This document shows positions 33,521-62,603 of a stretch of DNA of 64,000 nt, piece after piece. The translations under genes were made by a program, and so were the position numbers. Position 1 is the stretch's first letter. The number at the start of each line of letters is the position of its first letter. The stretch comes from an uncultured Acidobacteriota bacterium (GTDB lineage Bacteria > Acidobacteriota > Thermoanaerobaculia > Gp7-AA8). The notes below the pieces were generated by a model, which saw nothing but the letters and a program-made list of their open reading frames with translations, had not been told where the DNA came from and ran no database searches. The stretch spans positions 1,402,179 through 1,466,178 of the forward strand of contig CAVUKB010000005.1 in the NCBI GenBank assembly GCA_963741955.1, read 5' to 3'.

Positions 33521-33543
33521 GGCCGAAAGAGTAGCAGAGTATC

Positions 33544-33632
33544 GTGGATCGCGGATCGTGGATCTGAAAGACATCGCGGATCGATCCTCGATGCTTCTCA
33601 GATCCTCGATCCTCGATCCTAGATCCTCGATG
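33544..33632. repeat. Heptamer tract (GATCGTG/GATCCTC)
   Basis: Repeated GATC(G/C)(T/C)(G/C) units between the SDR and methyltransferase genes. Confidence 0.7.
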
Positions 33633-34947: not shown

Positions 34948-36126
34948 ATGAAAACTGAGGCACCAGAAGCGATGCAGACCGGAGATTCACTGGTCCGAAC
35001 GAGCTGGAAATCCGCTCCCTCACCGTCCATGTCGGATCGCGAGTACTTCATGAGCGAGACCGCACGGCGGGTGCGGCAGCTGGCCGTTTCGGAGTGGAGC
35101 GACTCCCGTCCGGTGGAGATGGTGGGAAAATCCCCCCTCTACATGGACCTCCAGAAGAAGGTCCTGAAGATCGCTCCGTTCCAGGAACCGGTGCTGATCA
35201 CCGGCGAGAGCGGGGTCGGGAAGGAATCTCTCGCGCAGGCCATCTACCTTCTCGGCGGACGCAGAGGAAAGCCGATGATCTCGGTGAATTGTCCTCAGTA
35301 CCGCGAAGGGAATCTCACCGTCAGCGAGCTCTTCGGTCACAAGAAGGGGAGCTTCACCGGCGCAACTGCGGACCGGCAGGGGTGCTTCGAGATCGCGAAC
35401 GGCGGAGTGATCTTCCTCGACGAGATCGGCGATCTGCACATGAGCGCACAGGTGATGCTGCTCCGCGCGCTGGCCAACGGCGAGTTCCAGCCCCTCGGGT
35501 CGGACACCACCCGCAAAGTCAACGTCCGGGTGATCGCCGCAACCAACCGGCAACTGGACAAACTAATGGTGGGCGAAGAATTCCGCCACGATCTATTCTT
35601 CCGTCTGCAGTACTTCCTGCTGAAGGTGCCGAGCCTGCGCGAGCGGGGCGACGACTGGCGACTCCTCCTCGACTTCTATCTGGAGAAGCTCTACCGCAAA
35701 TACGGAGTGCGCAAGTACTTCACCGGTGAGTCACTGAAGACACTGGAGAAGTACGAGTGGCCGGGCAACATCCGGGAATTGATCAGCCTCACCACCACCG
35801 GCTACGCGATGTCCGACGGCGATCAGATCCGCCCCGAGGATTTCGTGACGGTGATGAACGGCGCGACTCAGCCCCGATCGGCCGACCTGGTGGAGACTCT
35901 CTACCGGAAGATGGTCGACGAGAGACTGAGCTTCTGGGATGCCGTGCACACGCCGTTTCTCGATCGCGATCTGAACCGCGCAGAAGTGCGCGAGCTGATC
36001 CGCCGCGGCCTCACCCGGGCGCACGGGAGCTACCGGCAGTTACTGACGCTGTTCGGGCTTCCGGAAGAGGAATATCAGCGGTTCATGGATTTTCTGCGCC
36101 ACCACCGGTTGAAGCCGGACGCCTGA
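34948..36126 (+). CDS. Sigma54-dependent enhancer-binding protein without an N-terminal sensor domain (start may be 35029 or 35050)
   Basis: Walker A GESGVGKE, ELFGHKKGSFTGA, Walker B FLDEIGD, RVIAATN, FRHDLFFRL, WPGNIREL, helical C-terminal domain. Confidence 0.9.
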   Translation: MKTEAPEAMQTGDSLVRTSWKSAPSPSMSDREYFMSETARRVRQLAVSEWSDSRPVEMVGKSPLYMDLQKKVLKIAPFQEPVLITGESGVGKESLAQAIYLLGGRRGKPMISVNCPQYREGNLTVSELFGHKKGSFTGATADRQGCFEIANGGVIFLDEIGDLHMSAQVMLLRALANGEFQPLGSDTTRKVNVRVIAATNRQLDKLMVGEEFRHDLFFRLQYFLLKVPSLRERGDDWRLLLDFYLEKLYRKYGVRKYFTGESLKTLEKYEWPGNIRELISLTTTGYAMSDGDQIRPEDFVTVMNGATQPRSADLVETLYRKMVDERLSFWDAVHTPFLDRDLNRAEVRELIRRGLTRAHGSYRQLLTLFGLPEEEYQRFMDFLRHHRLKPDA

Positions 36127-36859
36127 CCACGTCGTCCAGGTACGGCAACCGGTTGAATCCCCACGTGAATCCGATCATCGCTTCCACCTGACCGAATCCG
36201 TTCGGGTAGCGATAGACGCGCGTGCACTCGCCAGTGCAGTCACGATTGGTGATCCGCTCGGTGTGGCGCACGCCGCTGTCGGTCGCGACCCAGTGAGCGC
36301 GGGTCTCGAACCGGAGTGCGGTGGTCGGTGTCATCCAGAGGTCGAACCCGATTCCTCCGCTGACGGATGGCGCATTCGTGGAAGGGAGCGGTGAGCTCGG
36401 CGAAACGTGCGTGATGCCGACCGCGGCGGTGGCGAAAGGCTGCAACAGCCCTTGCGCGCGCGCGGTCGGGGTCGACGTGCCGCGGAAGTTCCACAGAACT
36501 CCCGCGTCCCAGTGCGTGACGTTGACGTTGACCACGTTGATGTCACCGGCGGGGAACGGTCCGGACGGCTCTTCGCCGAACAGACGATTGCGGTCGACGA
36601 ACTGCGAGGACTGATTCAGTACGCCCAGCTCGATCTGGTACGCCGGATGCGAAAGGAGACGCCGTCCGACCCGCAGACCGAAGACGTTACTGCGCGAGAT
36701 GTCGACGCCGATGTAACGCGATCCCGAGAGCTGGGAATCGCGAACCCGCATTCCCCCTCCGGCCATGTAACCGAGCGACGGAGTGATGGTGAACAACGAC
36801 TCCTGCGCAAACACGAGTGATGGGACCGACAGACAGAGTGCCAGTAGAATCTTCTTCAT
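36083..36859 (-). CDS. Secreted outer-membrane beta-barrel-like protein
   Basis: Signal peptide MKKILLALCLSVPSLVFAQ; alternating amphipathic strands (QPFATAAVG, ALRFETR, IGFTWGF). Confidence 0.7.
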   Translation of the reverse strand: MKKILLALCLSVPSLVFAQESLFTITPSLGYMAGGGMRVRDSQLSGSRYIGVDISRSNVFGLRVGRRLLSHPAYQIELGVLNQSSQFVDRNRLFGEEPSGPFPAGDINVVNVNVTHWDAGVLWNFRGTSTPTARAQGLLQPFATAAVGITHVSPSSPLPSTNAPSVSGGIGFDLWMTPTTALRFETRAHWVATDSGVRHTERITNRDCTGECTRVYRYPNGFGQVEAMIGFTWGFNRLPYLDDVVRRPASTGGGAENP

Positions 36860-37032: not shown

Positions 37033-38520
37033 ATGACTCCCATCCGCGCCGTGGTTTTCGATCTGTACGGAACGCTCCTCCGGGTCCGCTCACGTGGACT
37101 CCACCGCGAAATGCCCCGGATCCTCGGCACCTCCGTCTCGGCCTGGCTCGAGCTCGTCCGCGACGAACTGCTGACCCGACCCTTTGCCACCTCGTCCGAA
37201 TTCGCCCGTTTCATCTGCGACCGTCTCGCGTCGAACGAATCAGAAGAGCCGGAATCGCGATGCGTCGCAGCGATCGATCGGGAGCTGGCCTCCGTGGAAG
37301 CCTTCGAGGGAGCGATCTCCCTCCTCTCTTTTCTCAAGCGGCGCGGCTACCGGCTCGGTGTGATCTCGAATCTTTCCAGCAGCTACAAGGAGCCGCTCGC
37401 CCGCTGCGGGATGGATGCCCTCTTCGATGCGACCTGCTTCTCCTGCGACGAGGGCGTAGCCAAGCCCGATCCCGTGATCTACCAGCGGATGTGCGAGCGG
37501 CTCGAAGTCACGCCCGGAGAGGTCCTCTTCGTGGGCGACTCGCACGCAAACGACGTCGAGGCTCCGGCGGCACTCGGGATGAAGACGCTTCCGATCGGTA
37601 CCGGACCGGGATCTCTCCGCACCGTGTCGGATCTCGGGTGGTACGTGTTCGGCGAAGATGGGAGCGTACGCCCCCTCCTCACACCGGACGCACGTTTCCG
37701 TTTCGGAGCGGCCGAGCTCCCGCTCGGCGACATCAGGCCGGTGGAAGACGACGAACAGGGCCGCTACAACGTCGTGTACCGCCTCCGGTCACTGGAGCCG
37801 AACGAGACCGACCAGCAGGTCTACTGCAAGCGCTACTTCCTCCCCGAGTCGACATGGGTGGAGGCATTCGCCCACCGGATGTACCGCGCCGCGGGATTTC
37901 CCGGATGCGATGCCGTCGTCTTCGGAGAGGCCGAACCGCTCCTCGCCGTTTCCGAAGCGCCGGGAAAGAAGTACGACGGCGAGCTCGATCCGGAGATCGC
38001 GTGGGAAGTGGGCCGTCACTTCACGTTCGCGTACTTCTTCTCCAATGCGGACATCCGTCCCCGGAATGCCTTTCTCTCGCGGGACGGTTCCCGCCCTCGG
38101 ATCACCATGATCGACCTGGAGCACTGCTTCTTCAATCTCGCCATCGATACGAGCGGAATCGCCGACCCGTTCGATCCGAAAGGCATCGATGCTCTTTCCG
38201 ATCTCCCGGAGAGGATGGGGAAAAAGGTTCTCACCGAGCGCGCGATGCGGCGGGCGCGCCGCAGCTTCGTGATGGAAGAGAACGTCTCGACCGAGATCCT
38301 CCACGCCTACCGGCGTGGTTTTCTGGACTGCTTCGCGGAGATGAAGGAACGAAAAGACGAGATCGTCGGAATTCTCCGCGAGCGGATTTACCGGAAGCCG
38401 TATCTGGTCATCGGAACTCACGGATACCGGAGGGCGATGGCGGGCGTCGATCTGGACGACATCGAGCAGAGGCTGGAGCACGACGGTGTCACCGTGCTCA
38501 ACTCTTTCTGTCCGGAGTAA
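37033..38520 (+). CDS. HAD-superfamily hydrolase fused to a HipA/PI3K-like atypical kinase domain
   Basis: HAD motifs FDLYGTL, ISN, KPDP, VGDS..ND. C-terminal half has GRYNVV, YCKRY, VEAFA, NADIRPRNAFL, MIDLEHCF. Confidence 0.75.
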   Translation: MTPIRAVVFDLYGTLLRVRSRGLHREMPRILGTSVSAWLELVRDELLTRPFATSSEFARFICDRLASNESEEPESRCVAAIDRELASVEAFEGAISLLSFLKRRGYRLGVISNLSSSYKEPLARCGMDALFDATCFSCDEGVAKPDPVIYQRMCERLEVTPGEVLFVGDSHANDVEAPAALGMKTLPIGTGPGSLRTVSDLGWYVFGEDGSVRPLLTPDARFRFGAAELPLGDIRPVEDDEQGRYNVVYRLRSLEPNETDQQVYCKRYFLPESTWVEAFAHRMYRAAGFPGCDAVVFGEAEPLLAVSEAPGKKYDGELDPEIAWEVGRHFTFAYFFSNADIRPRNAFLSRDGSRPRITMIDLEHCFFNLAIDTSGIADPFDPKGIDALSDLPERMGKKVLTERAMRRARRSFVMEENVSTEILHAYRRGFLDCFAEMKERKDEIVGILRERIYRKPYLVIGTHGYRRAMAGVDLDDIEQRLEHDGVTVLNSFCPE

Positions 38521-38598: not shown

Positions 38599-39318
38599 TC
38601 ACCAGTACAGCGCCCAGCCGTCGCTTGTTCTGACCCCGTGCCCCTGGACGGTGATACGCGCTTCGCCTTCGAGATTCTTCATCGGCAGCATCTGGTGGAG
38701 GCGGTGTCCGGAATGGATGAAGATCCGACCCTCCGCATACGCTTCGTGCACCGGCTTCCGATTCTCGTCCAACTTTCGCTTTCGCTCCTCTTCGCCGAGC
38801 GGTCTCAGCTCGTTCCAGTCGAGATTCCAGACCGCGAGTCCGGCGCCACTCTTCGGCAGCCTCACCGGGATGGTGAATGAGAGCGGATCGACGAAGTCGG
38901 GATCGGGGAGGCCACTCCAGTCGATCAGTTCGTACTGGAGGTCGTAGTGCGCGCTCGCCTTCTGCTTTTCGAACGACTCGTGCGCGTAGAAGATGTGGAA
39001 CCCGGGAAGTCCGAGCGGAGCGTAGCAGCGCGCGGGTCGCCCGAGAAGGAGGGAGAGCCGCTGCTCGAGCCGCTCGTACATCCAGCCGAAGTGCTCCCGG
39101 AGGATGGGATTGAGCGCAGCGGCCTTCTCACGGTAGGAGTGGAAGCGCCCTTCCGTCGCATCGAGGTAGCTCGCAGCGCCGAGGGTGAAGAAAGGGAGAC
39201 CGCTCCACCGGCGCTCCCATGAGGACTCGAGCGATTGGAGAGTCTCGAGAATGCTCGAGCATTCCGCGTCGTCGAAGAGCTCGACCGAAAGAAGAGTGCC
39301 GGAGTCGGACGTGGTCAT
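38599..39318 (-). CDS. Putative 2OG-Fe(II) oxygenase
   Basis: HYD (HxD), SFTIPV..P..GAGL, distal LHQ and RIT.QGH strand pattern of a double-stranded beta-helix. Confidence 0.6.
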   Translation of the reverse strand: MTTSDSGTLLSVELFDDAECSSILETLQSLESSWERRWSGLPFFTLGAASYLDATEGRFHSYREKAAALNPILREHFGWMYERLEQRLSLLLGRPARCYAPLGLPGFHIFYAHESFEKQKASAHYDLQYELIDWSGLPDPDFVDPLSFTIPVRLPKSGAGLAVWNLDWNELRPLGEEERKRKLDENRKPVHEAYAEGRIFIHSGHRLHQMLPMKNLEGEARITVQGHGVRTSDGWALYW

Positions 39319-39647
39319 GAACGAACGATTATCCGACAAAACCGCGCCGCACGCAGCCGCGGCGTCGCGAGCGCGTCGTTCGACCGATGGAGCCCCTCGT
39401 CCATCGGCGATGCATATGCATCACTCACGGGGGCATTCCTCTCCGATCTCTTTCCGTGAATGCCCGGATCATCGAGCAGCAATTACCGTTTCTGTCCGGA
39501 TCGCGGCAAATCGCCGCCGCTCGTGCGAGGTGAAAGTCGAGCGAGCGCTCGGGATATGGAGCCGAAGCTCCATTTCCATCCAGGGGTCAGGTCTCCTGTT
39601 TGGACTCAACTCATTCCTCCACAACGACTTGCGCGATTCAGGCGACA

Positions 39648-39663
39648 TGGCACGCGGCCTGCT
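39648..39663 (+). promoter_or_regulatory. Putative sigma54 (-24/-12) promoter of the precursor/lanM operon
   Basis: TGGCACGCGGCCTGCT: TGGCACG plus GG-N10-GC, about 75 nt upstream of the first precursor ATG. Confidence 0.7.
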
Positions 39664-39738: not shown

Positions 39739-40104
39739 ATGAGTGAAGTCAGCAAGCAGGAGATCATCGGCCTCATCTACCAGTTCGCGGAGAACAACAC
39801 CGACTACCGTCGCGCGTTGCTCGCCGACCCCAAGAAGGTGCTCGAGAAGCAGATGCAGCAGAACCTTCCGGAATCGCTGAAGGTCAAAGTGGTTCAGGAG
39901 AGCGCGGATACGGTGTATCTGGTCGCTCCCTACGTCCCGCAGCAGGGCGACGAGCTCTCCGACGAGGACCTCGAGAAGGTCGCCGGCGGCAAGGGCAAAG
40001 GCGGCGGCGGCGGCACGACCCGCAACGAGAGCAACAACATGTACATCTGCAACGACACCAAAGGCATCGGAACCCGCGTCGAAGTCACCACCAACGTCGG
40101 GTAG
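39739..40104 (+). CDS. NHLP-leader RiPP precursor A1
   Basis: GAGGAG RBS; leader YRRALLADPKKVLE..VKVVQES..TVYLVAP..ELSDEDLEKVAGG; core KGKGGGGGTTRNESNNMYICNDTKGIGTRVEVTTNVG. Confidence 0.95.
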   Translation: MSEVSKQEIIGLIYQFAENNTDYRRALLADPKKVLEKQMQQNLPESLKVKVVQESADTVYLVAPYVPQQGDELSDEDLEKVAGGKGKGGGGGTTRNESNNMYICNDTKGIGTRVEVTTNVG

Positions 40105-40113
40105 TCCGTTTTC

Positions 40114-40174
40114 GTGCTCCCGGAGGCTTTCCGGGAGCGCTTTTGAATGGGGCGTGGCCACCCGCGCCCCATTC
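40114..40174 (+). terminator. Double hairpin after precursor A1
   Basis: GTGCTCCCGGA..TCCGGGAGCGC then TTTT, followed by GAATGGGGCGTGG-CCAC-CCGCGCCCCATTC. Confidence 0.6.
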
Positions 40175-40218
40175 GAGAGCGCGATCCGTCGCTCTGAACC
40201 AGCTGAAAAGGAGAAGTC

Positions 40219-40584
40219 ATGAGTGAAGTGAGTAAGCAGGAGATCATCGGTCTCGTCTATCAGTTCGCGGAGAACAACACCGACTACCGTCGCGCGTTGC
40301 TCGCCGACCCCAAGAAGGTGCTCGAGCAGCAGATGCAGCAGAGCCTTCCCGCGTCACTCCATGTCAAGGTGGTTCAGGAGAGCGCGGACACGGTGTATCT
40401 GGTCGCTCCCTACGTCCCGCAGCAGGGCGACGAGCTCTCCGACGAGGACCTCGAGAAGGTCGCCGGCGGCAAGGGCAAGGGCGGCGGCGGCGGCACGACC
40501 CGCAACGAGAGCAACAACATGTACATCTGCAACGACACCAAGGGCATCGGAACCCGCGTCGAAGTCACCACCAACGTCGGGTAA
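40219..40584 (+). CDS. NHLP-leader RiPP precursor A2 (core identical to A1)
   Basis: AGGAG RBS; near-identical leader and identical 37-aa core. Confidence 0.95.
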   Translation: MSEVSKQEIIGLVYQFAENNTDYRRALLADPKKVLEQQMQQSLPASLHVKVVQESADTVYLVAPYVPQQGDELSDEDLEKVAGGKGKGGGGGTTRNESNNMYICNDTKGIGTRVEVTTNVG

Positions 40585-40706
40585 TCATTTCGTCGTACTC
40601 CCGGGCCGCTCCGGCCCGGGAGTGCTGTCGAGTGGGACGCCGCCGCCCGCGCCTCACTCGAGAGCAACATCGATGCTCTGAAATCAAATGAGGAGGTAAC
40701 CACCCC

Positions 40707-41072
40707 ATGAGTGAAGTCACCAAGCAGGAAATCATCGGTCTGGTCTATCAGTTCGCGGAGAACAACGCCGACTACCGTCGCGCATTGCTCACCGATCCCA
40801 AGAAGGTGCTCGAGCAGCAGATGCAGCAGAACCTTCCCGCGTCGCTGAAGGTCAAGGTGGTTCAGGAGAGCGCGGACACCGTCTATCTGGTCGCCCCCTA
40901 CGTCCCGCAGCAGGGCGACGAGCTCTCGGATGAGGATCTCGAGAAGGTCGCCGGCGGCAAGGGCAAAGGCGGCGATGGCGGCACGACCCGCAACGAGAAG
41001 AACAACATGTACATCTGCAACGACGCCAAGGGCATCGGAACCCGCGTCGAAGTCACCACCAACGTCGGCTGA
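40707..41072 (+). CDS. NHLP-leader RiPP precursor A3 (variant core)
   Basis: GAGGAGG RBS; core KGKGGDGGTTRNEKNNMYICNDAKGIGTRVEVTTNVG. Confidence 0.95.
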   Translation: MSEVTKQEIIGLVYQFAENNADYRRALLTDPKKVLEQQMQQNLPASLKVKVVQESADTVYLVAPYVPQQGDELSDEDLEKVAGGKGKGGDGGTTRNEKNNMYICNDAKGIGTRVEVTTNVG

Positions 41073-41241
41073 TCATTCCGGTTCGCTCCCGGGTCGAAAT
41101 GGCCCGGGAGTGCTTCCGCGTGGATCGCTTCATCCAGCAGCGATCCACCCGGAAGCAGAAATCACCGTCGTCAGCCGGTCCGGTTCACTTCGAACGCATC
41201 AAACGAGACCGTGGTGGACGATCACCTCGCGCGTTATGCCC

Positions 41242-44200
41242 ATGTCCGATCTCGATCTGATTCGAATCGCAGCCCGCGCACGAACTCTCGACGAAGCGCT
41301 ACGGCCGGTCGAATCTCCCATCCCCCTCCCCTCAGGAAATGAAGTGTCGCTCTGGATGCGCGCGTACTCCCCCGACTCCGAGGAAGCGTTCCACCGGCGC
41401 CTCGCCTGGGACGGCCTCGATGCCGCCGCCGTCTGCTGTTCCCTCGCCGCGCCGCTCGCGGAGGATGCGATGCCCGGCTGGCTCAGCTCCCTCACGCGGG
41501 TCTGCCGGATCGCCGCATCGCTCGATCCGGCCGCAATCGACCGGCACGTCGATGCCCTCGGCGCCGGCGATCTCCCCTTCGCGCACCTCTGGATCCCGTT
41601 CGTCCTCTTCTCCCGCGAGGCTCTCGATTCGTCTCTCGTAGCAGAGGAGAATCGACGCATCACCACGGCGGCGCGGCTCCAGCTCGATCGCGAGATCCTG
41701 CGCCGCATCGCCGATGCCGGTGCGCTCGTCGCGCTCGACTGCTTCGATCGCTTTCGCTCCGCGCATGCAGCTGATGCCTACCGCACTTTCGTCGCCCGCA
41801 CACTCGCGGACGGCTACCGCGATCTCTTCACCGACTACAGCGCCCTCGGGCGGCGGCTGATCGGACTGGTGGACGGCTGGACCGCATCGGTCGCCGAGAT
41901 GCTCGCTCGCCTCACTGCCGACGAAGAACCGCTCGAGAAGACGTTCGCGATCGCGGCGGGCGAGATCGCGTCGATCGAGAGCTCACTTTCCGATCGTCAC
42001 GACGGGGGGCGCACCGTCACCCGCCTCACGTTCGCTTCCGGAGGGGAGCTGATCTACAAACCGCGCGACGTCGGCATCGTCACCGCCTGGAACGACCTCC
42101 TTCGATGGCTCGCGTCGCACGGGCTCTCGGATGCACCGGCACCGCTCACGGTCGTCGAGCGGGAGGGGTACGGCTGGGTCGAGCACGTCCCGCAGACGCC
42201 GGCGAAAGACCATAGCGCCGCAGAGCGCTATTTTGCACGCGCCGGATCCCTCGTCTTCCTCGCCTGGCTCCTGGAGGGGCGGGACCTCCACATGGAGAAC
42301 GTCATCGCCGGTCCCGCCGGACCGGTCCTGGTCGACGTGGAGGCACTCTTTCATCCCGCCTCGGCGCTCGATGCGCTCACCTCCTCCACGGCGGTCGCAG
42401 TCGCCGGCAACCGCATCCGCTCGAGCGTGTTGAACAGCGGGCTCCTTTCCTTCCCTCAGGCGGATCCCGAAGGCCGGATCTACGACGTCGGGGGACTGCG
42501 CGGACGTGGAGGCTACGTCCTTTCGCACGAGAGTCTCGTCTGGCGCGAGGTCAATCGCGACTCCATGAGAATCGAGCGGGAAGAAACCGTGGCTCCTCCG
42601 GCGAAGAACGTCCTTTACCTTCACGGGGAGGCTCTCTCTCCCGACGAATTCGCCGGAGCCCTCACCGGCGGGTTCGCATCGACGTGGCGGCTGTTCCTCG
42701 AACATCGGGACGAGATCCTCGCATCCGGCGGACCGCTGGCGCGTTTCGCGGGAAAGAAGGTGCGGGTGGTCTTCCGCCCGAGCAACCAGTACGCGATCGC
42801 TCTGCGCCAGATGACTGCGCCGTCGCAGCAGCGACGCGGAATCATCAGCGGCTTTCTGATCGATTCACTCAACCGGATTTTTGCGGGCGAGACGGAAAGA
42901 CCTCTCCTGTGGCCTCTCGTCGCGGAAGAGCGCCGTGCTCTCGAGAGGCTCGACATCCCGCTCTTTCTCGTTCCGACGGATTCGGACGAGATCGAGATCG
43001 CGGACGGTGAGCGCCTCTCGGGATGGTCCCTGCGGAACGGGTTCGAGATCGTACGCGAGCGGATCGCGTCGCTCGACGAGAGCGGACTCGCGATGCAACT
43101 CTCGCTTCTCCGCGCATCGCTTCTCCCGCATCGCGATCCGGTCGAGCAGGAGCCGGCAGAAAGCGGCCCTTCCTTCGAGATCGGTTCGCCCATCGCCGCC
43201 CGGGAAGACTTTCTGCGCGAAGCCGCGGCGATCGGAGACGAGATTCTCTCTCACGCAATCCACGGTGACGATGGTTCGGTCACCTGGATCGCGCCGGAGT
43301 TTCTCCGGCTCGAGGAGCGTCCCGACTTCGGCGCGACGTACTACCTCTACGGCGGCGTCACCGGCATTTCGATCTTCCTCGCCGCCCTCGCTCGCGTCAC
43401 TCGCACGGATCGTTTCGGGGCTGCGGCCCTCGCCGCTCTCCGCCCTCTCCGTTCGCTCGTCGGGAGCTCCGATGCCGAGCGGCTCCTCCGGCAGGAAGGC
43501 ATCGGAGGATGCAACGGCATCGGTTCACTCGTCTACGCAGTGAACCTCACGGGCGAGCTTCTGGACGACCCGGAGACCACTGCGCTGGCCGTCGATCTCG
43601 CCCGCTTCATCGACGAACCGCGCATCGCGTCCGATGAGCGATTCGACGTCGAAGGGGGAGCCGCCGGAGCGATCCTCGCACTTCTCGCACTCCACCGCTC
43701 CACGGGAGAGCCGTGGCTTCTGGAGCGGGCGCGGCTCTGCGCACGGCATCTGCTCGACCGTTCCCTGGTCGAGGGCGGCCTGCGCCGATGGCCCGGTCCC
43801 GACGGCTTCTCGCTGGCCGGGCTCGCGCACGGCTCCGCCGGCTACACCCTCGCTCTCGCCCGACTCGGCGCGGCGATCGGAGACACGGCCTTGATCGAAG
43901 CGGCTACCGAGTCGCTGCGATGGGAAGATTCGGTGTTCGATCCCTCCAGCGGCAACTGGCCGGTATTCCGGCGAGCCGGAAAACCCCCAGTCTTCATGAT
44001 TGCCTGGTGCCACGGCGCGGCCGGCATCGGTCTCTCCCGGCTCTCCCTCCGCGGTCTGATCAAGGATGACGCAGTCGAGAGAGGGATCGAGCGGTCGACG
44101 TCGACCGTCCTCGCCGATTCCCTCTTCGTCGTCGATCACCTCTGCTGCGGAAATCTCGGCCGGGACGAACTCCTCGTCGAATCGGGAGGCGAGGCTCTCG

Positions 44201-44421
44201 AAGAAGCACGCCGCCGCGCGACGGTCGCTCTCGACCGCCGCCGCAACAGCGGAGCGTGGGCCCTCCAGCCGGATGCCGAAGAGAACCGGATCTTCCAACC
44301 CGGCTTTTTCCGCGGACTCGCCGGCATCGGCTATTCGATGTTGCGTCTCGCCAACCCCGAATCACTTCCGTCGGTTTTGTCATTTGGAAATGCAGCATTC
44401 CTTTCCAGGAGAAGATCATGA
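41242..44421 (+). CDS. lanM: Class II lanthipeptide synthetase LanM, CCG-type (start 41236 or 41242)
   Basis: Dehydratase motifs SDRHDGG, YKPR, YGWVE, DLHMEN, VDVEALF, R.VFRPS..Y, LDIP. Cyclase motifs LYGG.TG, GLAHG, WCHG, LCCG. Confidence 0.95.
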   Translation: MSDLDLIRIAARARTLDEALRPVESPIPLPSGNEVSLWMRAYSPDSEEAFHRRLAWDGLDAAAVCCSLAAPLAEDAMPGWLSSLTRVCRIAASLDPAAIDRHVDALGAGDLPFAHLWIPFVLFSREALDSSLVAEENRRITTAARLQLDREILRRIADAGALVALDCFDRFRSAHAADAYRTFVARTLADGYRDLFTDYSALGRRLIGLVDGWTASVAEMLARLTADEEPLEKTFAIAAGEIASIESSLSDRHDGGRTVTRLTFASGGELIYKPRDVGIVTAWNDLLRWLASHGLSDAPAPLTVVEREGYGWVEHVPQTPAKDHSAAERYFARAGSLVFLAWLLEGRDLHMENVIAGPAGPVLVDVEALFHPASALDALTSSTAVAVAGNRIRSSVLNSGLLSFPQADPEGRIYDVGGLRGRGGYVLSHESLVWREVNRDSMRIEREETVAPPAKNVLYLHGEALSPDEFAGALTGGFASTWRLFLEHRDEILASGGPLARFAGKKVRVVFRPSNQYAIALRQMTAPSQQRRGIISGFLIDSLNRIFAGETERPLLWPLVAEERRALERLDIPLFLVPTDSDEIEIADGERLSGWSLRNGFEIVRERIASLDESGLAMQLSLLRASLLPHRDPVEQEPAESGPSFEIGSPIAAREDFLREAAAIGDEILSHAIHGDDGSVTWIAPEFLRLEERPDFGATYYLYGGVTGISIFLAALARVTRTDRFGAAALAALRPLRSLVGSSDAERLLRQEGIGGCNGIGSLVYAVNLTGELLDDPETTALAVDLARFIDEPRIASDERFDVEGGAAGAILALLALHRSTGEPWLLERARLCARHLLDRSLVEGGLRRWPGPDGFSLAGLAHGSAGYTLALARLGAAIGDTALIEAATESLRWEDSVFDPSSGNWPVFRRAGKPPVFMIAWCHGAAGIGLSRLSLRGLIKDDAVERGIERSTSTVLADSLFVVDHLCCGNLGRDELLVESGGEALEEARRRATVALDRRRNSGAWALQPDAEENRIFQPGFFRGLAGIGYSMLRLANPESLPSVLSFGNAAFLSRRRS

Positions 44422-45386
44422 CCGTCCAGAGTCCATCCACCGTCCAGATCCGGCCGGTCGGCGCCGGCGAGGCTGCCGTTTTTTCGGCCATGACTTTCCC
44501 GGCCTACCGGCACATGCTCTCGCTGGAGCGCACCGTCCGCCTTCCCCAGGAGCACGACAGCCTTCCGGTCGACCCGATCGCCGTGGCGGCGATCATCGAC
44601 GGAACACCGGCAGGGCTCGCGGTCGGAGAGCTGCCGGTCCTGGAGGATCATCTACCGGAGGTTCTCTCTCTCTTCGTCGCCCCGCAGTTTCGCGGTCACG
44701 GAATCGCGACGCAGCTGCTCGCGCGGATGGAAGAGGAGGTTCGGTCTCGCGGGTTCGAGCGCCTCCTCGGGATCTACATGACCGGTAAGTCGGGGGTCGA
44801 CGCGTTCGAGCACATCGCGGCGAAACGCGGATGGTCGGAGCCGCACGTGCGGATGGTCTCCTGCCGCTTCAGTGCGGAATCTCTCGCCTCCGCGCCGTGG
44901 CTCGGGAAGTACCACCTCCCGTCCGACTACGAGATCTTCCCCTGGAGCGAGCTCCGGGAGGAAGAGCGAGAGACCCTCCGGCGCTCGCACGCCGAGAATC
45001 CGTGGATCGCGCCGGATCTCCTCCCGTGGGAGTACGAGAAATTCGGCTTCGAGCCGAAGACCAGTCTCGGCATCCGCTACAAGGGAGTGGTGGTCGGATG
45101 GATCCTCAACCACCAGCTCGCGGACGATACGGTCCGCTACACCTGCAGCTACATCCGAAAAGATCTCGGCCGGCTCGGACGGATCGTCCCGGCGTACTCC
45201 GAATCATTCCGCCGCTTCATCGAAGCGGGCTTTCGGAACGCAACTTTCACCACTCCTCTCCACCACAAGGGGATGGCGGCATTCGCGAAAAGATGGTTCG
45301 CTCCCTGGTCGACCTTTTTCGGAGAAACCCGAGGCATCGAAAAATCTCTCGGTTCGGATCAATCGAACGATCGGTCCGGACTCTGA
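44418..45386 (+). CDS. GNAT-family acyltransferase, selidamide-type candidate
   Basis: ATGA overlap with lanM; acyl-CoA loop FVAPQFRGHGIATQL plus a second GNAT-like half (VVGW..H...RYT..YIRKDL.RLG). Confidence 0.85.
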   Translation: MTVQSPSTVQIRPVGAGEAAVFSAMTFPAYRHMLSLERTVRLPQEHDSLPVDPIAVAAIIDGTPAGLAVGELPVLEDHLPEVLSLFVAPQFRGHGIATQLLARMEEEVRSRGFERLLGIYMTGKSGVDAFEHIAAKRGWSEPHVRMVSCRFSAESLASAPWLGKYHLPSDYEIFPWSELREEERETLRRSHAENPWIAPDLLPWEYEKFGFEPKTSLGIRYKGVVVGWILNHQLADDTVRYTCSYIRKDLGRLGRIVPAYSESFRRFIEAGFRNATFTTPLHHKGMAAFAKRWFAPWSTFFGETRGIEKSLGSDQSNDRSGL

Positions 45387-45501: not shown

Positions 45502-47469
45502 ATGAGGCGTAACGGTCGTCAGATCCTCGGCAGCATCATCACTACTCTCGCACTTCTGATCCTCGTCCCCGCGGTCACTGCCCAGACTCCCCCCGGCGAA
45601 CAGCCGCCCGTCTACGCACCGGCTGCGATCTCCGCACCGTCGATCTCGATCATGGATGCGGTCCGTCTGACCCTGCTGAACGACCCGAGCGTCAAGCTCG
45701 CCGAACAGTCGACGCTTCAGCAGAGGGGATACGCTCAGGAGCAGACCGGAACGTTCGACACGGACATCCTCGGGTCGATCGACTTCAACTACGAGCAGAC
45801 GGAGCTCGGCAAGGACGCGATCAAAGCCGAGACGGACCGCCGCAAGCAGCAGCGGGAAGTCGCGAATCAGACCCACGATCGCGCGGAGCAGGTTCAGGCG
45901 GAGCTCGATGCCGTCCGGAACGCGAATCCGAACGATTTCAATCTCGGGCTCGACGATCCCGACGCCCAGGCGTTCCAGACCCAGGTGGAGCTGTTCAATG
46001 CTCTCCTTCGCGCGGCGGGAGAAGCGGAACGCCAGAAGCTCCTCGAGCTTCGCGATCAGATGATCCAGACTCACATCACCGAGCTTCAGAATACCCTCGA
46101 CGTCCTCCACAAGGAGGAAGCCGACGCCCTCGAGCGACTCCGGAAATTCGGGACCATTCCGCGCATCCAGGAGAACTATTTCGGGACGCTCAGCCTGACT
46201 CTCGTCCAGCCTCTCCGGACCGGCATGGTCGTCTCCCCCTTCTTCACGTTCAGCGGAAACGGGACGTATTACAAGGGGAAGAAGCAGAGTCAGGACTGGG
46301 GCGGGCTCGGTCTGGAGGACCTCTACAAATCGCAGCTCGGCTTCACGGTCACCCTCCCGCTCGGACGCGGCAGCGGCGTGGAGTCGGTCGCCGCCGCGGA
46401 ACGGGCGGCCTGGATCGACTACGACGCGAGCAATCGCTTCGAGCGGCACATCGCCGCCTCCAGCGTCTACTCGGCGACTCTCGCCTACTGGAATCTCGTC
46501 GCGGCGCAGGAACAGCTGGAAGTCGCGAGGGAATCCGAGAAGCTTCAGAACCAGCTGGTCGGCCTCACTCAGGACCTGATCGAAGGGGACGAGATTCCGC
46601 GAGCGGAGCTCTCCCGCGCCCAGGCCGAGGAATCGAACAGTCTCGCCATCGTCAGCAGCAGCCAGCAGAGTCTCTACCAGGCCCGCGTCCAGCTGGCCCA
46701 GAGCATGGGGCTGCGGGTGGAAGACGAGACGAACGCTCCGCTCGCATCGTCGCCGTTCCCCACGCCTCCTCCGATGGACGTGGTACTCCGGCTCGATGCC
46801 TCGCGCCTCGGCGACATGGCGGTCGCACGGCGCGAGGATCTGCGCGCGACCGAGATGGCCCTCGATTCCGGAAAGCTTCTCCTCAATGCCGCGAGGCTCG
46901 ACCTCCGTCCGAAGTTCGACCTCACCGGAAAGCTCTACTACTCCGGGGTGAGAGAGACTGGAAGCTTCGGCCGCGGATTCGCCGGAACGGTGAGCCAGTG
47001 GACCGGCCCGAGCACGTCACTGGCGGCATCGTTCGAGCGACCGATCGGGAACAATCTCTGGAAGGGCCGCTACGCCCAGCAGCAGGCGCTCTACAACCAG
47101 AAGGACATCTCCTCGACCAATCTCCGCCGCTTGATCAAGGCTGACGTCGTCGCGACGGTGGCCTCGCTGAAAGAAGCCGCCACGCAGCTCGACCAGTCGG
47201 AGCGCGCGGTTGGTTACTACCATCAGTCGGTCGATTCGGAGCTCGAAAAGCTTCGTCTCGGGACTTCCACCCTGGTCAATGTCGTCTTCACCGAGCAGCA
47301 GCTCATCAGCGCGATGGTCGGCCTGGTCGACGCGCGTTACACCTACGCTTCGCTCCTTACGCGGCTCCGGTACGACACCGGAACCATCGTCGACACGACC
47401 GGAGACGTGAACCGGGTCTTCGAAGAAAACTTCTATCAGCTCCCGCCTCTGGCGGGAGGATCCAGGTGA
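45502..47469 (+). CDS. TolC-family outer-membrane factor 1 with large helical insertion
   Basis: Signal peptide; AVRLTL.NDP, FTVTLPL.RG, AYWNL.AA, RREDL, LRPKFDL, EKLRLG.ST, L...TG repeats. Confidence 0.85.
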   Translation: MRRNGRQILGSIITTLALLILVPAVTAQTPPGEQPPVYAPAAISAPSISIMDAVRLTLLNDPSVKLAEQSTLQQRGYAQEQTGTFDTDILGSIDFNYEQTELGKDAIKAETDRRKQQREVANQTHDRAEQVQAELDAVRNANPNDFNLGLDDPDAQAFQTQVELFNALLRAAGEAERQKLLELRDQMIQTHITELQNTLDVLHKEEADALERLRKFGTIPRIQENYFGTLSLTLVQPLRTGMVVSPFFTFSGNGTYYKGKKQSQDWGGLGLEDLYKSQLGFTVTLPLGRGSGVESVAAAERAAWIDYDASNRFERHIAASSVYSATLAYWNLVAAQEQLEVARESEKLQNQLVGLTQDLIEGDEIPRAELSRAQAEESNSLAIVSSSQQSLYQARVQLAQSMGLRVEDETNAPLASSPFPTPPPMDVVLRLDASRLGDMAVARREDLRATEMALDSGKLLLNAARLDLRPKFDLTGKLYYSGVRETGSFGRGFAGTVSQWTGPSTSLAASFERPIGNNLWKGRYAQQQALYNQKDISSTNLRRLIKADVVATVASLKEAATQLDQSERAVGYYHQSVDSELEKLRLGTSTLVNVVFTEQQLISAMVGLVDARYTYASLLTRLRYDTGTIVDTTGDVNRVFEENFYQLPPLAGGSR

Positions 47470-47491: not shown

Positions 47492-49498
47492 ATGAGCCGC
47501 ACTCTGACTGCAGTCCTGACCCTCGCGCTGGCCGTGCTCCCGCTGTATGCGGAGACGGACCAGACTCCTCCTCCCGTACCCCCCGATCCTGTCTTTGCGT
47601 CGTCACCGCAGCTCGGGTTGAACGACGCCATCCTTCTCACTCTGCGCAAGGACCCGGGACTCCAGACCGCCGAGGAGAACAAGAAGTACGAGCGGGGAGT
47701 GCTGCAGGAAACCAGTGGGATCTTCGATCACGCGCTCCTCCTCGACGGCGATGCGGAATACCTCCGCGGCGAGCTGATCCCGCGAACATTCAATCAGCAG
47801 CTCGGCAGACGCGAGCTCTACAACTCGCTCGCCACGATCTTTCAACGCGTCGCCGACGATCTCCAGGCGAATCTCGACGAGAAGCCGAACGAGACGGCGA
47901 CCATCCCCTGCAAGGAGGGAGTCCTCACCGAGGGTACGCAGCTGGTGATCACCGACCCGAGTAACGGGCAGCAGATCATCGTGCAGTGCACCCCGCCGAC
48001 CGCGGACCAGACGGTCTATATCGACGAAGCGCTCGACACACTGATCGGCGCACAGAACAATCCCGGCCTCGAAGCAGAGCTCGAACGGCTGAAGAAGATG
48101 GGCGTGGAGATCTCGCGGCAGAAGATCGAGGAGATCATCGCGCTGCTCGATCAGTCGGCGTCGAGTTTCCGCGAACAGCTCCGCAGACTCGGCACCGCGC
48201 CGAACATCGAGGAGCAGATCTCTTTCCTCGCCGCGATCGGATATCGCGTCCCGATGCGCAACGGCGTGACCGTCACTCCCCGTTTCGCGGTCCAGAGCAT
48301 CGAGAAGAACTTCGTCGGCAAACCGAAGGATCCGAACTACGGTGGAGGGGGACCGACGAAGTATCAGGCCGCGGCAGGGTTCGAGCTCACCGCCCCTCTC
48401 GCCCGGGGCTACGGCATGGCGGTCGCCGACGTCTACGAACAGGCGGCGAAGATCAACTACAAGGCGAGTGTCAACGACTGGAGGCAGACTGCTTCCGCTT
48501 CGACGCTGAACTCGGTCCTCGCGTACTGGAATCTCCTCGCCGCCGAGCAGAATCTGCAGATCGCCAGCTCCACTGCGGACCGTTACCGGAACGTGCTCGA
48601 TCTCGGGCAGGCGCTCGTCGACGCATACGAATTCCCGCGGGCAGACATGAATCAGGTCCGGGCGCGGGTCGCAGGCGCAGAGTCTTCTCTCGCCGGCGCA
48701 CGTAAGGCCGTCAGCGACGCGCGGGTCGCGCTCGCCCGCACTACCGGCATGGAGATCGATACGATCGACCAGGCGCCGGTGGCGACCGGCGATTTCCCTC
48801 CCGTCCCCGATCCTGCGCTGTTTCAGAGCGTTCCGGTCCGGAGTCTGATCGACATGGCGATCGGAAATCGCGGAGACGTTCAGGCCGCCATCGACCGGAA
48901 GGAAGCAGCTGCGCTCCTTCGGGAGGCCGCGAGGAAAAACCTCAAACCGCAGACCGACCTGACGCTCTTCGTCGGCTATACCGGGAACGACGCGAACTAC
49001 GACGCGTGGCGCGGTCTCCGCCATGCGCTCTTCGGAAACTGGATCGGTCCGACCGCATATCTGACGCTCAACTTCGAGACGCCCTTCCAGAACAACGTCT
49101 GGCGCGGCCGTCTGGTTCAGGCGGTCGCGACTGAAAACCAGAGCGATGTGATCGCCACCGATACCAGGCGCGTGGTCTCCGCACGCGTGGTCGAGCTCTG
49201 GGGTGCACTGGCGAGAGCAGCCGAATCAGTGCGCACGAATCAGAGCACCGTGGAGTACTATCAGAGAACAGTAGACGGACAAATCGAGAAGCTGAAAGTC
49301 GGTGAAGGAACACTCATCGACGCCATCTTCACCGAGCAGCAGCTCACCACGGCGAAGCAGTCGCTGGTCGCTGCGAAGCTCGGCTACGCCTCTCTTCTCA
49401 TGCAGCTGCGGTACGAGACCGGGACACTCGTGACCACCGGCTCGCAGGGACAACTGATGATCGTGCCCGGAGGCATCGAGCAGCCTCCGGTGCCCTGA
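47492..49498 (+). CDS. TolC-family outer-membrane factor 2, paralog of factor 1
   Basis: Signal peptide; AILLTL..DP, ELTAPLARG, AYWNLLAA, NRGDV, LKPQTDL, EKLKVGEGT, LRYETG. Confidence 0.85.
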   Translation: MSRTLTAVLTLALAVLPLYAETDQTPPPVPPDPVFASSPQLGLNDAILLTLRKDPGLQTAEENKKYERGVLQETSGIFDHALLLDGDAEYLRGELIPRTFNQQLGRRELYNSLATIFQRVADDLQANLDEKPNETATIPCKEGVLTEGTQLVITDPSNGQQIIVQCTPPTADQTVYIDEALDTLIGAQNNPGLEAELERLKKMGVEISRQKIEEIIALLDQSASSFREQLRRLGTAPNIEEQISFLAAIGYRVPMRNGVTVTPRFAVQSIEKNFVGKPKDPNYGGGGPTKYQAAAGFELTAPLARGYGMAVADVYEQAAKINYKASVNDWRQTASASTLNSVLAYWNLLAAEQNLQIASSTADRYRNVLDLGQALVDAYEFPRADMNQVRARVAGAESSLAGARKAVSDARVALARTTGMEIDTIDQAPVATGDFPPVPDPALFQSVPVRSLIDMAIGNRGDVQAAIDRKEAAALLREAARKNLKPQTDLTLFVGYTGNDANYDAWRGLRHALFGNWIGPTAYLTLNFETPFQNNVWRGRLVQAVATENQSDVIATDTRRVVSARVVELWGALARAAESVRTNQSTVEYYQRTVDGQIEKLKVGEGTLIDAIFTEQQLTTAKQSLVAAKLGYASLLMQLRYETGTLVTTGSQGQLMIVPGGIEQPPVP

Positions 49499-49560: not shown

Positions 49561-50661
49561 ATGGCGAAGGCCGACAAGATCTTTCGAAAAGCAGCACTGG
49601 AAAAACTCTCCTCCCCCGAGCGTCTCGACGTGCTGATGGAGGTGACCTCTCCCGCCGGATGGCTTGCGCTCTCGGCACTCGGCGTGGTCATCGCCCTGGT
49701 CATCGTCTGGAGTTTCTACGGAACGATCGGGACCAAGGTCGGGGGTCAGGGAATTCTTCTCCGTGGCGGCTCGGTGCTTCAGGTCACCTCCGACACTCAG
49801 GGACGGATCACCAAGCTCTACGTCGCTCCGGGCGAGAACGTCGAGGCCGGAATGGTCGTCGCGGATATCGCTCAGGACGACTACAAGCTGAAGATCGACA
49901 ACCAGAAGGCGCTTCTGGCCGATCTGGTCCGCCAGAACGACACGCTCTCGACGACCGGTCTGGAAAGTTCGCTCGAGGAGAAGATCAAGGCCCAGACCAC
50001 ACTCGTCTCGCGAGGGCTGCTGACCAAGAGCGACCTGATGGCGACCATGGAGCAGCTGGCCAGCCTCCGGCGTCAGGCCGCGAGCCGCGCCACTCAGATC
50101 GATCAGCTCCGACGGCAGATCGGCGAGATGGAGATGCAGATGGTCAACGCCTCGCGCATCACCTCTCCTTATTCCGGTCGCGTCCTGGAAGTGGGCACCG
50201 GCGTCGGCGAGTTGATCGCTCCCGGCATGCGAGTCTTCACACTCGAGCCGCCGCGGGCGCCGATCGACGTCGTTCTCTACGTCCCGGCGGCGGAGGGGAA
50301 AAAGATCAAGCCCGGAATGGAAGCGCGCATCTCACCTTCGACGGTCAAGGCCGAAGAGTTCGGCTTCATGATCGGAAGGGTGACCGGCGTCTCCGATTTT
50401 CCGGTCACCCCGGACGGGCTGCAGAAGGTGCTCCGCAATGATTCTCTCGTCCAGCAGCTGGCCGGGCAGGGAGCTCCGATCGAGGTGAAAGTCAGGCTCA
50501 CTCCGGATAAGAACACTCCGAGCGGATTCAAGTGGTCGTCGTCACTCGGGCCGCCGGTGAAGGTGGCCACCGGAACCCTCTGTGTGGGCACGGTCGTCGT
50601 GGCCGAAAAGAAACCCATCTCTTACATCCTGCCGATCTTCAAGTCGGCAGCGGGAATGTGA
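49561..50661 (+). CDS. NHLP bacteriocin system secretion protein (HlyD-like adaptor)
   Basis: IFRKAALEKLSSPERLD, TM helix, coiled coil, PSTVKAEEFG, SGFKWSSS.GPP. Confidence 0.92.
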   Translation: MAKADKIFRKAALEKLSSPERLDVLMEVTSPAGWLALSALGVVIALVIVWSFYGTIGTKVGGQGILLRGGSVLQVTSDTQGRITKLYVAPGENVEAGMVVADIAQDDYKLKIDNQKALLADLVRQNDTLSTTGLESSLEEKIKAQTTLVSRGLLTKSDLMATMEQLASLRRQAASRATQIDQLRRQIGEMEMQMVNASRITSPYSGRVLEVGTGVGELIAPGMRVFTLEPPRAPIDVVLYVPAAEGKKIKPGMEARISPSTVKAEEFGFMIGRVTGVSDFPVTPDGLQKVLRNDSLVQQLAGQGAPIEVKVRLTPDKNTPSGFKWSSSLGPPVKVATGTLCVGTVVVAEKKPISYILPIFKSAAGM

Positions 50662-55878: not shown

Positions 55879-57471
55879 ATGACCGACCAGGAGATTTCGA
55901 GTCGCCGGGCGGCGATCCTCGAACGGCACGGCGCCGCCGGCTCCGTGCTGGAGGAGCTGCTCGCGTACAACGCGAACGTCTTTCAGCCTTCCCAGTTCAA
56001 CTCTCTTCCGCAACTGCCGGTCGCGGACGAGATGCACGTCGAGAGCTGGCTCGGATACTCGCAGGATGCCGAGAAACTCGGGACGATCCCCGCGTTGAGC
56101 AAACGCCTGGTGCAGCTCCTCTTCCCCATTCAGGAGGGAATCAGCCAGACCGACGATTACCGTGCCGCGACCCGGCGCGGCGTTTTCCCTCTTCCCGGAG
56201 AAGCGCCCCGGCTCTCGCTGAAGGATCCGGACGGCGTGCAGCTGGTGATTCATCCCACCATGGCCGGAAGAGTTCCGATGCTGATCGCGCGGGAACGGGA
56301 CGACTTCGAGAGCCTGGTCCGCGTCTTCTCCGAACGGAACGAGCCCGCCGCAGTCCCCCCTTCGATGGGTGCGTGCATCGTCACGGGGCTGAACAACTGG
56401 GACCGGATCCACACCTACCGGCGAAGCTGGGTGCGCGCGAATCCCACCGCTGAAGAATCCGACTGGTCGAAGGAGTTCCAGAAACTGGTTCCATTGAAGC
56501 ACCTCTACCAGGACCGTTTCATCATTCTCAGCTCCGGACCCTACAGCGGAGTCTCCGCCGGAATGGCCGGAATCCCGGAGACGGAGTGGCTGGAGATGTC
56601 GATGCGGATCCGCCGCGAGCACGAAGCGACACACTACTTCACGTGGCGCCTCCTCGGCTCGATGCGCAACAACCTCATCGACGAGATCATCGCCGACTAC
56701 GCCGGGCTGGTCAGCGTCTTCGGTCGTTTCCGCGCCGACCTCGCGCTCCTCTTCTTCGGCCTGGAGAATTATCCCGATTACCGCACCGGGGGCCGGCTCG
56801 AGAACTACCGCGGCAACCCTCCCCTCTCGCAGGATGCCTTGCGGCTGGTGATGGGGCTGACCGTAGAAGCGATCCGCAACCTCGAGAAGTTCAACCTCTC
56901 GCTGCCGGAAGAGGAGCGCCGCGATCCGATGCACCTGGCGCAGACCGTGGTCGCGCTCGCCGCCATGACTCTCGAGGAGCTCACCGCCGACGACATCGCA
57001 GAGAATCTCCACGCCATGCTCGGACGCCAGAACGAGTCACGGCTCCGCCGTGAGAGCGTCCACGAAGAGTCGATCCAGGTCGAGAACAGCAGTGACGGCC
57101 TCGCGGAGCTGATGGAGCGGTTCGAGACGTTCGCTCTCGATCACGAGATCCCGGTGAAGGTCCTCTCCTCCCTGAACCTCGCTCTCGACGAGCTGGTGTC
57201 GAACATCATCAAGTACGGCTACGACGACGAGGAGCGGCACACCATCACCCTCGAGGTGCGCCTCACCGGTGGACGGCTCGATCTCGAGATCGTCGACGAC
57301 GGACACGAGTTCAATGTCCTCGAACAGGAGGACCCCGACGTCTCGCTCGGAATCGAAGAGCGTAAGATTGGAGGGCTCGGGATCTTCATCGTCAAGCAGT
57401 TGATGGACGAGATGCATTACGAGCGACGCAACGATCAGAACCATCTGTTCATGAGCAAGAATCTGGACTGA
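55879..57471 (+). CDS. Fusion of an uncharacterised HExxH domain (DUF7005-like) and an RsbW-type anti-sigma kinase
   Basis: N-terminal ~390 aa with DRFIILSSGPYS, RREHEATHYF, DEIIADY. C-terminal LALDELVSNIIKYGY, IVDDG..F, GGLGIFIVKQLMD. Confidence 0.85.
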   Translation: MTDQEISSRRAAILERHGAAGSVLEELLAYNANVFQPSQFNSLPQLPVADEMHVESWLGYSQDAEKLGTIPALSKRLVQLLFPIQEGISQTDDYRAATRRGVFPLPGEAPRLSLKDPDGVQLVIHPTMAGRVPMLIARERDDFESLVRVFSERNEPAAVPPSMGACIVTGLNNWDRIHTYRRSWVRANPTAEESDWSKEFQKLVPLKHLYQDRFIILSSGPYSGVSAGMAGIPETEWLEMSMRIRREHEATHYFTWRLLGSMRNNLIDEIIADYAGLVSVFGRFRADLALLFFGLENYPDYRTGGRLENYRGNPPLSQDALRLVMGLTVEAIRNLEKFNLSLPEEERRDPMHLAQTVVALAAMTLEELTADDIAENLHAMLGRQNESRLRRESVHEESIQVENSSDGLAELMERFETFALDHEIPVKVLSSLNLALDELVSNIIKYGYDDEERHTITLEVRLTGGRLDLEIVDDGHEFNVLEQEDPDVSLGIEERKIGGLGIFIVKQLMDEMHYERRNDQNHLFMSKNLD

Positions 57472-62595: not shown

Positions 62596-62603
62596 GGTCA
62601 CAA

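Follow-up and report, generated by a model that had tools for sequence, protein, structure and literature searches.

A stretch of 64,000 nucleotides from an uncultured Acidobacteriota bacterium of the class Thermoanaerobaculia, here called the window, carries three tandem precursor genes (A1, A2 and A3) followed by genes for a class II lanthionine synthetase (LanM), a GNAT acyltransferase and an export system. By gene content this is a selidamide-type cluster, side-chain fatty acylation being the defining trait of selidamides (PMC13647313), and the acylation is predicted from sequence. Our proposal as a whole, that the precursors mature into an exported selidamide-type lipo-lanthipeptide which most likely serves as a bulk surface-active product, has in our judgement an even chance of being right. 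Its chemical part, comprising a ring between Cys20 and Thr28, an acyl group on Lys1 and cleavage and export by a C39 transporter, is predicted with high confidence, and the bulk surface-active role stands slightly short of an even chance.

The three precursors, 121 residues each and spaced by 480 and 488 nucleotides, have leaders that score 66–68 bits with the NHLP leader model TIGR03793 (curated cut-off 50.9), match PF02979 and end in Gly-Gly, as in NHLP (proteusin-type) precursors. The first-pass annotation had described three near-identical precursors with a common core layout after VAGG, a description borne out by the open reading frames (ORFs), the leader model and the comparison of the cores. 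The core DNA of A1 and A2 differs by two synonymous codon changes that leave the protein identical, and that of A3 departs from both by three non-synonymous and two synonymous changes. Because the leaders differ by 9–15 synonymous and 5–6 non-synonymous codons, the copies are real paralogs and not an assembly artefact. The single Cys of the window cores is C20, and Ser or Thr occurs at positions 9, 10, 14, 23, 28, 33 and 34. The rest of the host genome, which is 99% complete, yielded no additional NHLP precursor and no second LanM or matching GNAT.

Relatives of the cores were collected from 91 proteins, 74 genome loci, 78 metagenome loci (drawn from the best 80 of 256 confirmed stretches) and 20 class loci, the locus scans being seeded by leader-end patterns, whereby selection on the core was limited and not removed. 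From 202 distinct cores pooled, 27 were dropped for having no Cys, more than one Cys, a truncated or over-long sequence, or a Cys outside 11–28 residues from the end. The 175 single-Cys cores that were aligned span Acidobacteriota, Gammaproteobacteria and Verrucomicrobiota; a family member is listed for Thermoanaerobaculum aquaticum, as a class II precursor row (PMC7268733 supplement). The T28 column holds Ser or Thr in 174 of the 175 cores (163 Thr, 11 Ser and 1 Pro), against 7 at T9, 12 at T10, 28 at S14, 62 at T23, 48 at T33 and 72 at T34, and two more Ser/Thr-rich columns, 17 and 19, are Met and Ile in the window cores. Three cores have one Ser/Thr only, each time at the T28 equivalent. 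Since only the T28 column is near-always Ser or Thr, the ring is likely a Cys20–Thr28 thioether, and the conservation of the two residues suggests formation of a methyllanthionine. A 9-residue ring is implied in 86 cores, a 10-residue ring in 50. With one Cys per core, the earlier claim of at most one thioether ring is supported, as is the claim that its partner is probably neither S14 nor T23, with family conservation now pointing to T28; five Thr had been called invariant, which holds among the three recent paralogs, yet across the family T28 alone is conserved. The stretch ahead of the Cys varies from 5 to 24 residues and therefore seems to act as a spacer. A core-only profile run against 1.84 billion representatives returned five matches, all of them NHLP precursors or fragments.

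The modifying enzyme fits such a ring. LanM scores 721 bits with TIGR03897 (cut-off 304), contains PF13575 and PF05147, is 31% identical to NpuM over 1108 columns and retains the dehydratase and cyclase motifs in alignment with LicM2, so that a full-length class II synthetase is encoded beside precursors with Cys and Ser/Thr. Its CCG zinc motif matches all 46 such motifs found in homolog matches; enzymes of this CCG type are presumably associated with the ProcM clade.

Among 72,556 plasmid records searched, the GNAT had 11 matches, the best being WP_012412981.1 (NpuN) of Nostoc punctiforme, which adjoins WP_012412979.1 and WP_012412980.1; the three proteins are named NpuN, NpuM and NpuA (PMC13060382). 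The window enzyme and NpuN are 40% identical over 294 residues (pairwise E 2e-76), and NpuN His265 aligns with His283; NpuN was the one characterised acyltransferase in this comparison. The NpuA core starts with KGK, as the window cores do (PMC7268733 supplement), NpuN acylates Lys1 only, with Lys3 being no substitute (PMC13060382), and each of the three characterised selidamide enzymes acts on the Lys or Orn nearest the N-terminus (PMC13647313). Lys1 is present in all three window cores and, across the family, Lys occupies position 1 in 145 of the 175 cores and lies within the first five residues in 168. Considering the homology to NpuN and the KGK precedent with Lys1-only acylation, a fatty acyl group is likely on Lys1; acylation itself is thus supported, and of the two sites first put forward the evidence points to Lys1 and not to Lys3. 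As no arginase was found among the cluster genes, Lys would be the acyl acceptor. Downstream sequence of 5 kb or more is available for 56 family loci; LanM is adjacent in 32 of these, and the GNAT is found in 31 of the 32. In four genomes of family f5, the cores start hydrophobic and have no Lys before the Cys, and lanM is directly followed by tolC; no GNAT was found in these four genomes (89–94% complete) nor in any of the 43 f5 genomes. In genome G093, the GNAT is absent at the locus and present elsewhere, and the cores have Lys5.

A different chemistry is improbable and carries slight weight in our assessment. Another Thr could enter the ring, or several dehydrobutyrines could matter more than the ring, and the same low figure covers a GNAT that targets Lys3 or the freed N-terminus, or that transfers a short acyl group. 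Such outcomes would draw on the seven Ser/Thr of the core, on a Ser that replaces the Thr of LicM2 in the RPT motif of LanM (yet 17 of 42 homolog matches read RPS), on the acceptance of acetyl-CoA by NpuN in vitro (PMC13060382) and on a GNAT tree of 49 rows, unrooted, with NpuN as sole reference and no outgroup, in which 46 family GNATs sit on a branch of their own apart from NpuN. They are opposed by the near-invariant T28 column, by the three cores with a single Ser/Thr and by the precedent for Lys1 that the three characterised selidamide pathways all provide.

Comparison with known systems places the chemistry. The nostolysamide cluster (npu) of Nostoc punctiforme shares the LanM, the homologous GNAT, the TIGR03794/03796/03797 exporter, the Gly-Gly leader end and the KGK core start (PMC8784127, PMC13060382). 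It differs in having a Nif11 leader instead of NHLP and four rings in 25 residues instead of one Cys in 37; three precursor copies, two TolC genes, a 2-oxoglutarate (2OG) oxygenase and a sigma-54/partner-switching module are present here and not in npu, where a response regulator takes the place of that module in the stretch examined. Kamptornamide (ksp) and phaeornamide (pha) share the NHLP leader, one methyllanthionine ring and GNAT acylation near the N-terminus, and the pha cluster also has a Fe(II)/2OG hydroxylase (PMC8784127, for which PMC11621775 is a correction). In both, however, the acylated residue is an ornithine made by arginase, and the ring positions differ: Thr11–Cys19 (9 residues) in kamptornamide, and Cys4–Thr7, with Cys before Thr, in phaeornamide (PMC8784127). 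Because single-ring selidamides have been published, a single Cys is not unusual, and 'unusual' overstated the case for a core type that forms a large conserved family. Prochlorosins and expanded NHLP/Nif11 paralog families likewise combine one synthetase, a CCG-type LanM, with several, sometimes dispersed, precursors, but their paralog cores are hypervariable (PMC2887384), whereas here paralog cores are near-identical and the scaffold is kept across phyla. SapB/AmfS-type morphogenetic lanthipeptides are also secreted and dependent on hydrophobic residues (PMC13380574), a proposed functional analogy only, as they come from class III enzymes in Streptomyces hosts, with no NHLP leader and no side-chain lipid. 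The clusters aci, tha and the for ribosomally made peptides with post-translational modifications (RiPPs) of Thermoanaerobaculia (PMC13083261) were considered and are different systems.

No description of the conserved core family, its sigma-54 promoter or its module was found in the full-text literature, with most subscription journals outside the coverage; Table S7 of PMC8784127, which lists predicted selidamide precursors, may include family members, since the main text of that paper mentions Acidobacteria GNATs. The chemistry is thus of the known selidamide type, and the family and the regulon look new. Apparently undescribed are the conserved core, the sigma-54 promoter, the co-conserved activator with a partner-switching module, and up to 11 dispersed copies per genome with near-identical cores. 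This variant is new in its scaffold, which is fixed across phyla, in an amplification that does not diversify and in a regulon of its own.

Precursor matches occur in 48 of 301 genomes of the class, some weak ones being other NHLP types. Five genomes chosen for dispersed copies have 11, 8, 8, 5 and 3 precursor matches and one GNAT each; some matches in genome G303 are contig-end fragments. Orphan copies, which mostly have a sigma-54-like site to themselves, adjoin unrelated genes. A partner gene common to them was sought and rejected: the 53 neighbouring ORFs of 29 orphan loci are heterogeneous, a single GDP-mannose dehydratase pair, shared by two related genomes, being the exception. Hypervariability of the prochlorosin kind was not observed: by crude counting, non-synonymous differences per site (pN) in paralog cores are 0–0.022 against 0.13–0.55 for synonymous ones (pS) in six of seven genomes, the seventh having identical core DNA, and A1 equals A2. 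The paralog cores thus appear to be under purifying selection.

A regular pattern of non-polar residues (Ala included) runs through the 175 cores. Positions Cys-2, Thr+2 and Thr+4 are non-polar in 172, 133 and 173 cores, against 23, 12, 6 and 1 for Cys-1, Cys-3, Thr+3 and Thr+5. In the window cores the former positions correspond to Y18, V30 and V32, which have the same parity as C20 and T28. This alternation fits a stapled amphipathic hairpin or arch with one non-polar face. The net side-chain charge after acylation would be zero or negative in 150 of the 175 cores. A curli-repeat resemblance was not found by the core-profile searches and is not claimed; the idea of a C-terminal PDZ-ligand or BamA beta-signal mimic was dropped, with 54 of 175 cores ending in Gly.

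Expression appears to be under dedicated control. The promoter-like site upstream of A1 is the sole one in the window with at most one mismatch to the sigma-54 -24/-12 consensus; with 0.78 such sites expected by chance, it is not significant alone. It gains weight because the same site stands at a similar distance before most family precursors. Upstream DNA was sufficient for 151 single-Cys precursors, of which 69 carry a site with no more than one mismatch and 102 a site with no more than two; in 3000 random windows drawn from the same loci, the corresponding shares are 2.6% and 6.7%. Most sites lie 75–135 nucleotides upstream, and many of the misses are second or third tandem copies. The host genome encodes rpoN (above cut-off), so that site enrichment, activator and rpoN agree by sequence with a sigma-54 regulon acting at a predicted promoter. 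Strong hairpins follow each precursor and would favour precursor over enzyme mRNA; they were rejected as a genome-wide repeat, the pattern occurring nine times in the genome with three of these here. In the 21 family clusters flanked on each side by 5 kb or more, close relatives included, an activator ortholog (at least 50% identity) is present in 18, at least one gene for a STAS protein, PP2C phosphatase, anti-sigma kinase, DUF7005 protein or cyclic nucleotide (cNMP)-binding protein in 17, the HAD-kinase fusion in 9, the outer-membrane protein in 9 and the 2OG oxygenase in 5.

Such a module raises the question of whether the same peptide might be a cell-to-cell signal that, once sensed, would act back on its own promoter by way of partner switching and the sigma-54 activator; lineage-specific signal types would then arise from the variable linker and loop. 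We consider this somewhat unlikely, although it is the alternative with the most to recommend it: besides the co-occurrence of activator and module genes, the cores are nearly fixed within a genome and different between lineages, the uncharacterised probable outer-membrane protein could be a receptor, and morphogenetic lanthipeptides can act species-specifically (PMC13380574). Against it, no membrane sensor was identified among the conserved module genes of the window, which look cytoplasmic by their domains (the queries were window proteins, and a sensor restricted to relatives could be missed), and up to 11 precursor copies per genome would better suit a bulk product.

SapB-type lanthipeptides coat surfaces in quantity and have a biosurfactant role. 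A bulk surface role of this kind is favoured here because of the non-diversifying amplification, the mostly neutral or acidic cores, the amphipathic face and the lack of a recognised sensor in the module. The following pathway is suggested. The sigma-54 promoter, driven by the activator of the cluster itself, would transcribe the three precursors, with the hairpins after each copy holding precursor mRNA above enzyme mRNA. LanM would dehydrate Thr28 and add Cys20 to form a 9-residue methyllanthionine ring; the remaining Ser/Thr may be dehydrated, with a second ring impossible. The GNAT would put a long acyl chain, of a length that is not predictable, on the Lys1 side chain, and the 2OG oxygenase may add a hydroxyl. 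Cleavage after Gly-Gly and export by the C39-ABC/HlyD/TolC system are predicted. The ring would staple two short strands with Tyr18, Val30 and Val32 on one face, giving a build of lipid tail, flexible polar linker and amphipathic hairpin. As the least certain step, the product may coat the cell or an interface in quantity, in the manner of SapB-type lanthipeptides.

A membrane-acting antimicrobial or anti-predator lipopeptide like nostolysamide C would share the same chemistry. Homologous enzymes produce nostolysamide C, which acts against both bacteria and fungi (PMC13060382), the NHLP exporter carries a bacteriocin-exporter annotation, and the distribution is patchy, with matches at E 1e-25 or better in 6 of 401 genomes of the phylum and, within the family to which the host belongs, matches in 3 of 72 genomes. 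This function is nevertheless distinctly unlikely, as the cores are mostly neutral or acidic and conserved across phyla and paralogs instead of diversified; moreover, none of the cluster genes was recognised as an obvious immunity gene, although no search aimed at immunity genes was made. A bolder extension of the surface role, rather unlikely in our view, would make this lipid-anchored, thioether-stapled beta-hairpin peptide the building block of a surface coat or fibre across phyla, with bulk supplied by up to 11 sigma-54-driven genes and dedicated two-TolC export, and with the cytoplasmic kinase/phosphatase module coupling production to cell state or export, comparable to flagellin or pilin control.

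Several points weigh against the proposal of a bulk surface-active lipopeptide. The evidence is drawn from sequence throughout, and the family sequences are related, so that the counts are not independent events. Triplication had been read as selection for dosage, with which relatives carrying up to 11 near-identical copies and the purifying selection agree; however, 26 of the 48 matching class genomes have a single match, so amplification is not required, and the divergence of the A3 core at three positions is a misfit with pure dosage. The two-strand amphipathic layout has the family-wide alternation on its side and no support from structure prediction: AlphaFold2 on the precursor (45-row alignment) gave a confident leader, a core with a per-residue confidence score (pLDDT) below 50 and no confident fold, a result neither for nor against a hairpin. 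No solved structure resembling the core matched in a PDB profile search, where the 31-position core-only profile, of little power, drew chance-level antibody matches only. The window cores are also non-polar at positions 17 and 19 (Met and Ile), which makes their amphipathy weaker than that of most relatives. The joint loss of Lys and GNAT is one event in one lineage, seen in genomes 89–94% complete. The acyl chain of nostolysamide left the activity unchanged, with its role stated to be unclear (PMC13060382), and a signal would account just as well for a regulatory module that is dedicated and conserved.

Table 1. Features of the cluster with their positions in the window.
Feature	Position	Strand	Remarks
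Sigma-54 activator (bacterial enhancer-binding protein)	34948..36126	+	PF00158; short N-terminal extension, no receiver domain found
Probable outer-membrane beta-barrel protein with signal peptide	36083..36859	-	Read from sequence
HAD phosphatase fused to kinase-like (HipA/APH-type) domain	37033..38520	+	
Predicted Fe(II)/2OG oxygenase	38599..39339	-	Divergent from the precursors
Sigma-54 (-24/-12) promoter-like site upstream of A1	39648..39662	+	
Precursor A1	39739..40104	+	84-residue NHLP leader ending VAGG; 37-residue core at 39991-40101
Two strong RNA hairpins after A1, one terminator-like	40105..40218	+	Fold z -6.6; terminator-like site 40114-40140
Precursor A2	40219..40584	+	Core identical to A1 core
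RNA hairpins after A2	40585..40706	+	Fold z -5.3
Precursor A3	40707..41072	+	Core changes G6D, S14K, T23A
RNA hairpins after A3, before lanM	41073..41170	+	Fold z -8.0
LanM class II lanthionine synthetase, intact, CCG zinc motif	41242..44421	+	Inferred start 41236 or 41242
GNAT acyltransferase, NpuN homolog	44418..45386	+	Start overlaps lanM stop (ATGA)
TolC-family outer membrane protein 1	45502..47469	+	PF02321
TolC-family outer membrane protein 2	47492..49498	+	PF02321
NHLP-system HlyD adaptor	49561..50661	+	TIGR03794 above cut-off
C39 peptidase-ABC transporter	50677..52869	+	TIGR03796 above cut-off, PF03412; Cys, His, Asp motifs present
Second NHLP ABC transporter	52874..55840	+	TIGR03797 above cut-off
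DUF7005 domain (HExxH motif) fused to anti-sigma-type kinase (HATPase_c_2)	55879..57471	+	Recurs in family clusters
FHA-GAF-SpoIIE (PP2C) phosphatase	57604..59313	+	Recurs in family clusters
cNMP-binding + FHA protein	59486..60223	+	Recurs in family clusters
STAS (anti-anti-sigma) protein	60235..60924	+	Recurs in family clusters

Further features of the cluster genes deserve mention (Table 1). In the predicted oxygenase, residues H131-D133-H215 and R228 are kept in at least 90% of 17 homologs; its matches to WelO5 are weak, AlphaFold2 without an alignment gave a mean pLDDT of 37, which is unusable, and in gammaproteobacterial relatives its gene sits between lanM and the GNAT gene. The outer-membrane protein had no Pfam, NCBIfam or PDB match. 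The HAD-kinase fusion lies directly upstream of the precursors in many acidobacterial clusters. By Pfam, the sigma-54 activator has neither a receiver nor a GAF domain; what it does have is a short N-terminal stretch, conserved and often with a Ser..WG motif, which may be the regulatory input. About 300 extra N-terminal residues precede the TIGR03797 match of the second ABC transporter (52874-53800), without a Pfam match and by eye like a cyclic-nucleotide-binding fold. DUF7005 recurs beside NHLP exporters, including that of the cyanobacterial cluster L062, shows a weak structural likeness to M1 peptidases (Atlas, template-modelling score at most 0.34), and could link peptide processing to regulation.

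Among the sequences sampled, L063, L067, L074, P0086 and P0088–P0090 belong to another NHLP family, whose cores start with Lys and are rich in Thr, Val and Ala; in L067, a homolog of the 2OG oxygenase is present as well. In L197 (G245:C18:139000-158999), two precursors look normal as far as the Cys, beyond which unrelated long frames follow, and a gap precedes lanM; insertions into both copies or an assembly fault are possible causes. A short-chain dehydrogenase/reductase, a methyltransferase, a 136-residue ORF, a subtilase and a 283-residue ORF were rejected as cluster members, as they do not recur as conserved members in family clusters. Near the cluster lie a Trm112-like/methyltransferase fusion (32651-33574) and a short-chain dehydrogenase/reductase (33637-34356), neither conserved in family clusters. 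The region 61595-63437, also not conserved with the cluster, holds a subtilase-like ORF seemingly split over frames (61595-62302 and 62227-62595), together with an ORF that encodes a signal peptide and belongs to no known family. Between a ruvA-like gene (30289-30879) and a DUF2752 gene, a long imperfect-repeat array (30900-32150) has repetitive ORFs in every frame and is possibly a non-coding repeat element.

Thermoanaerobaculum aquaticum is in culture, and its family member makes the cellular role of such peptides testable. The predictions are exact: a ring between C20 and T28, a lipid on K1, one promoter and one activator. Dozens of new acyltransferases come with the family as well. What the lipid does in selidamides is described as unclear (PMC13060382), and NHLP precursors are known to have hypervariable cores (PMC2887384). 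A selidamide-type scaffold that is fixed across three phyla, amplified without diversification and provided with its own sigma-54 circuit suggests a physiological job and not chemical warfare. If the coat or fibre reading were true, a RiPP would be serving Gram-negative bacteria as a polymer of the cell surface.

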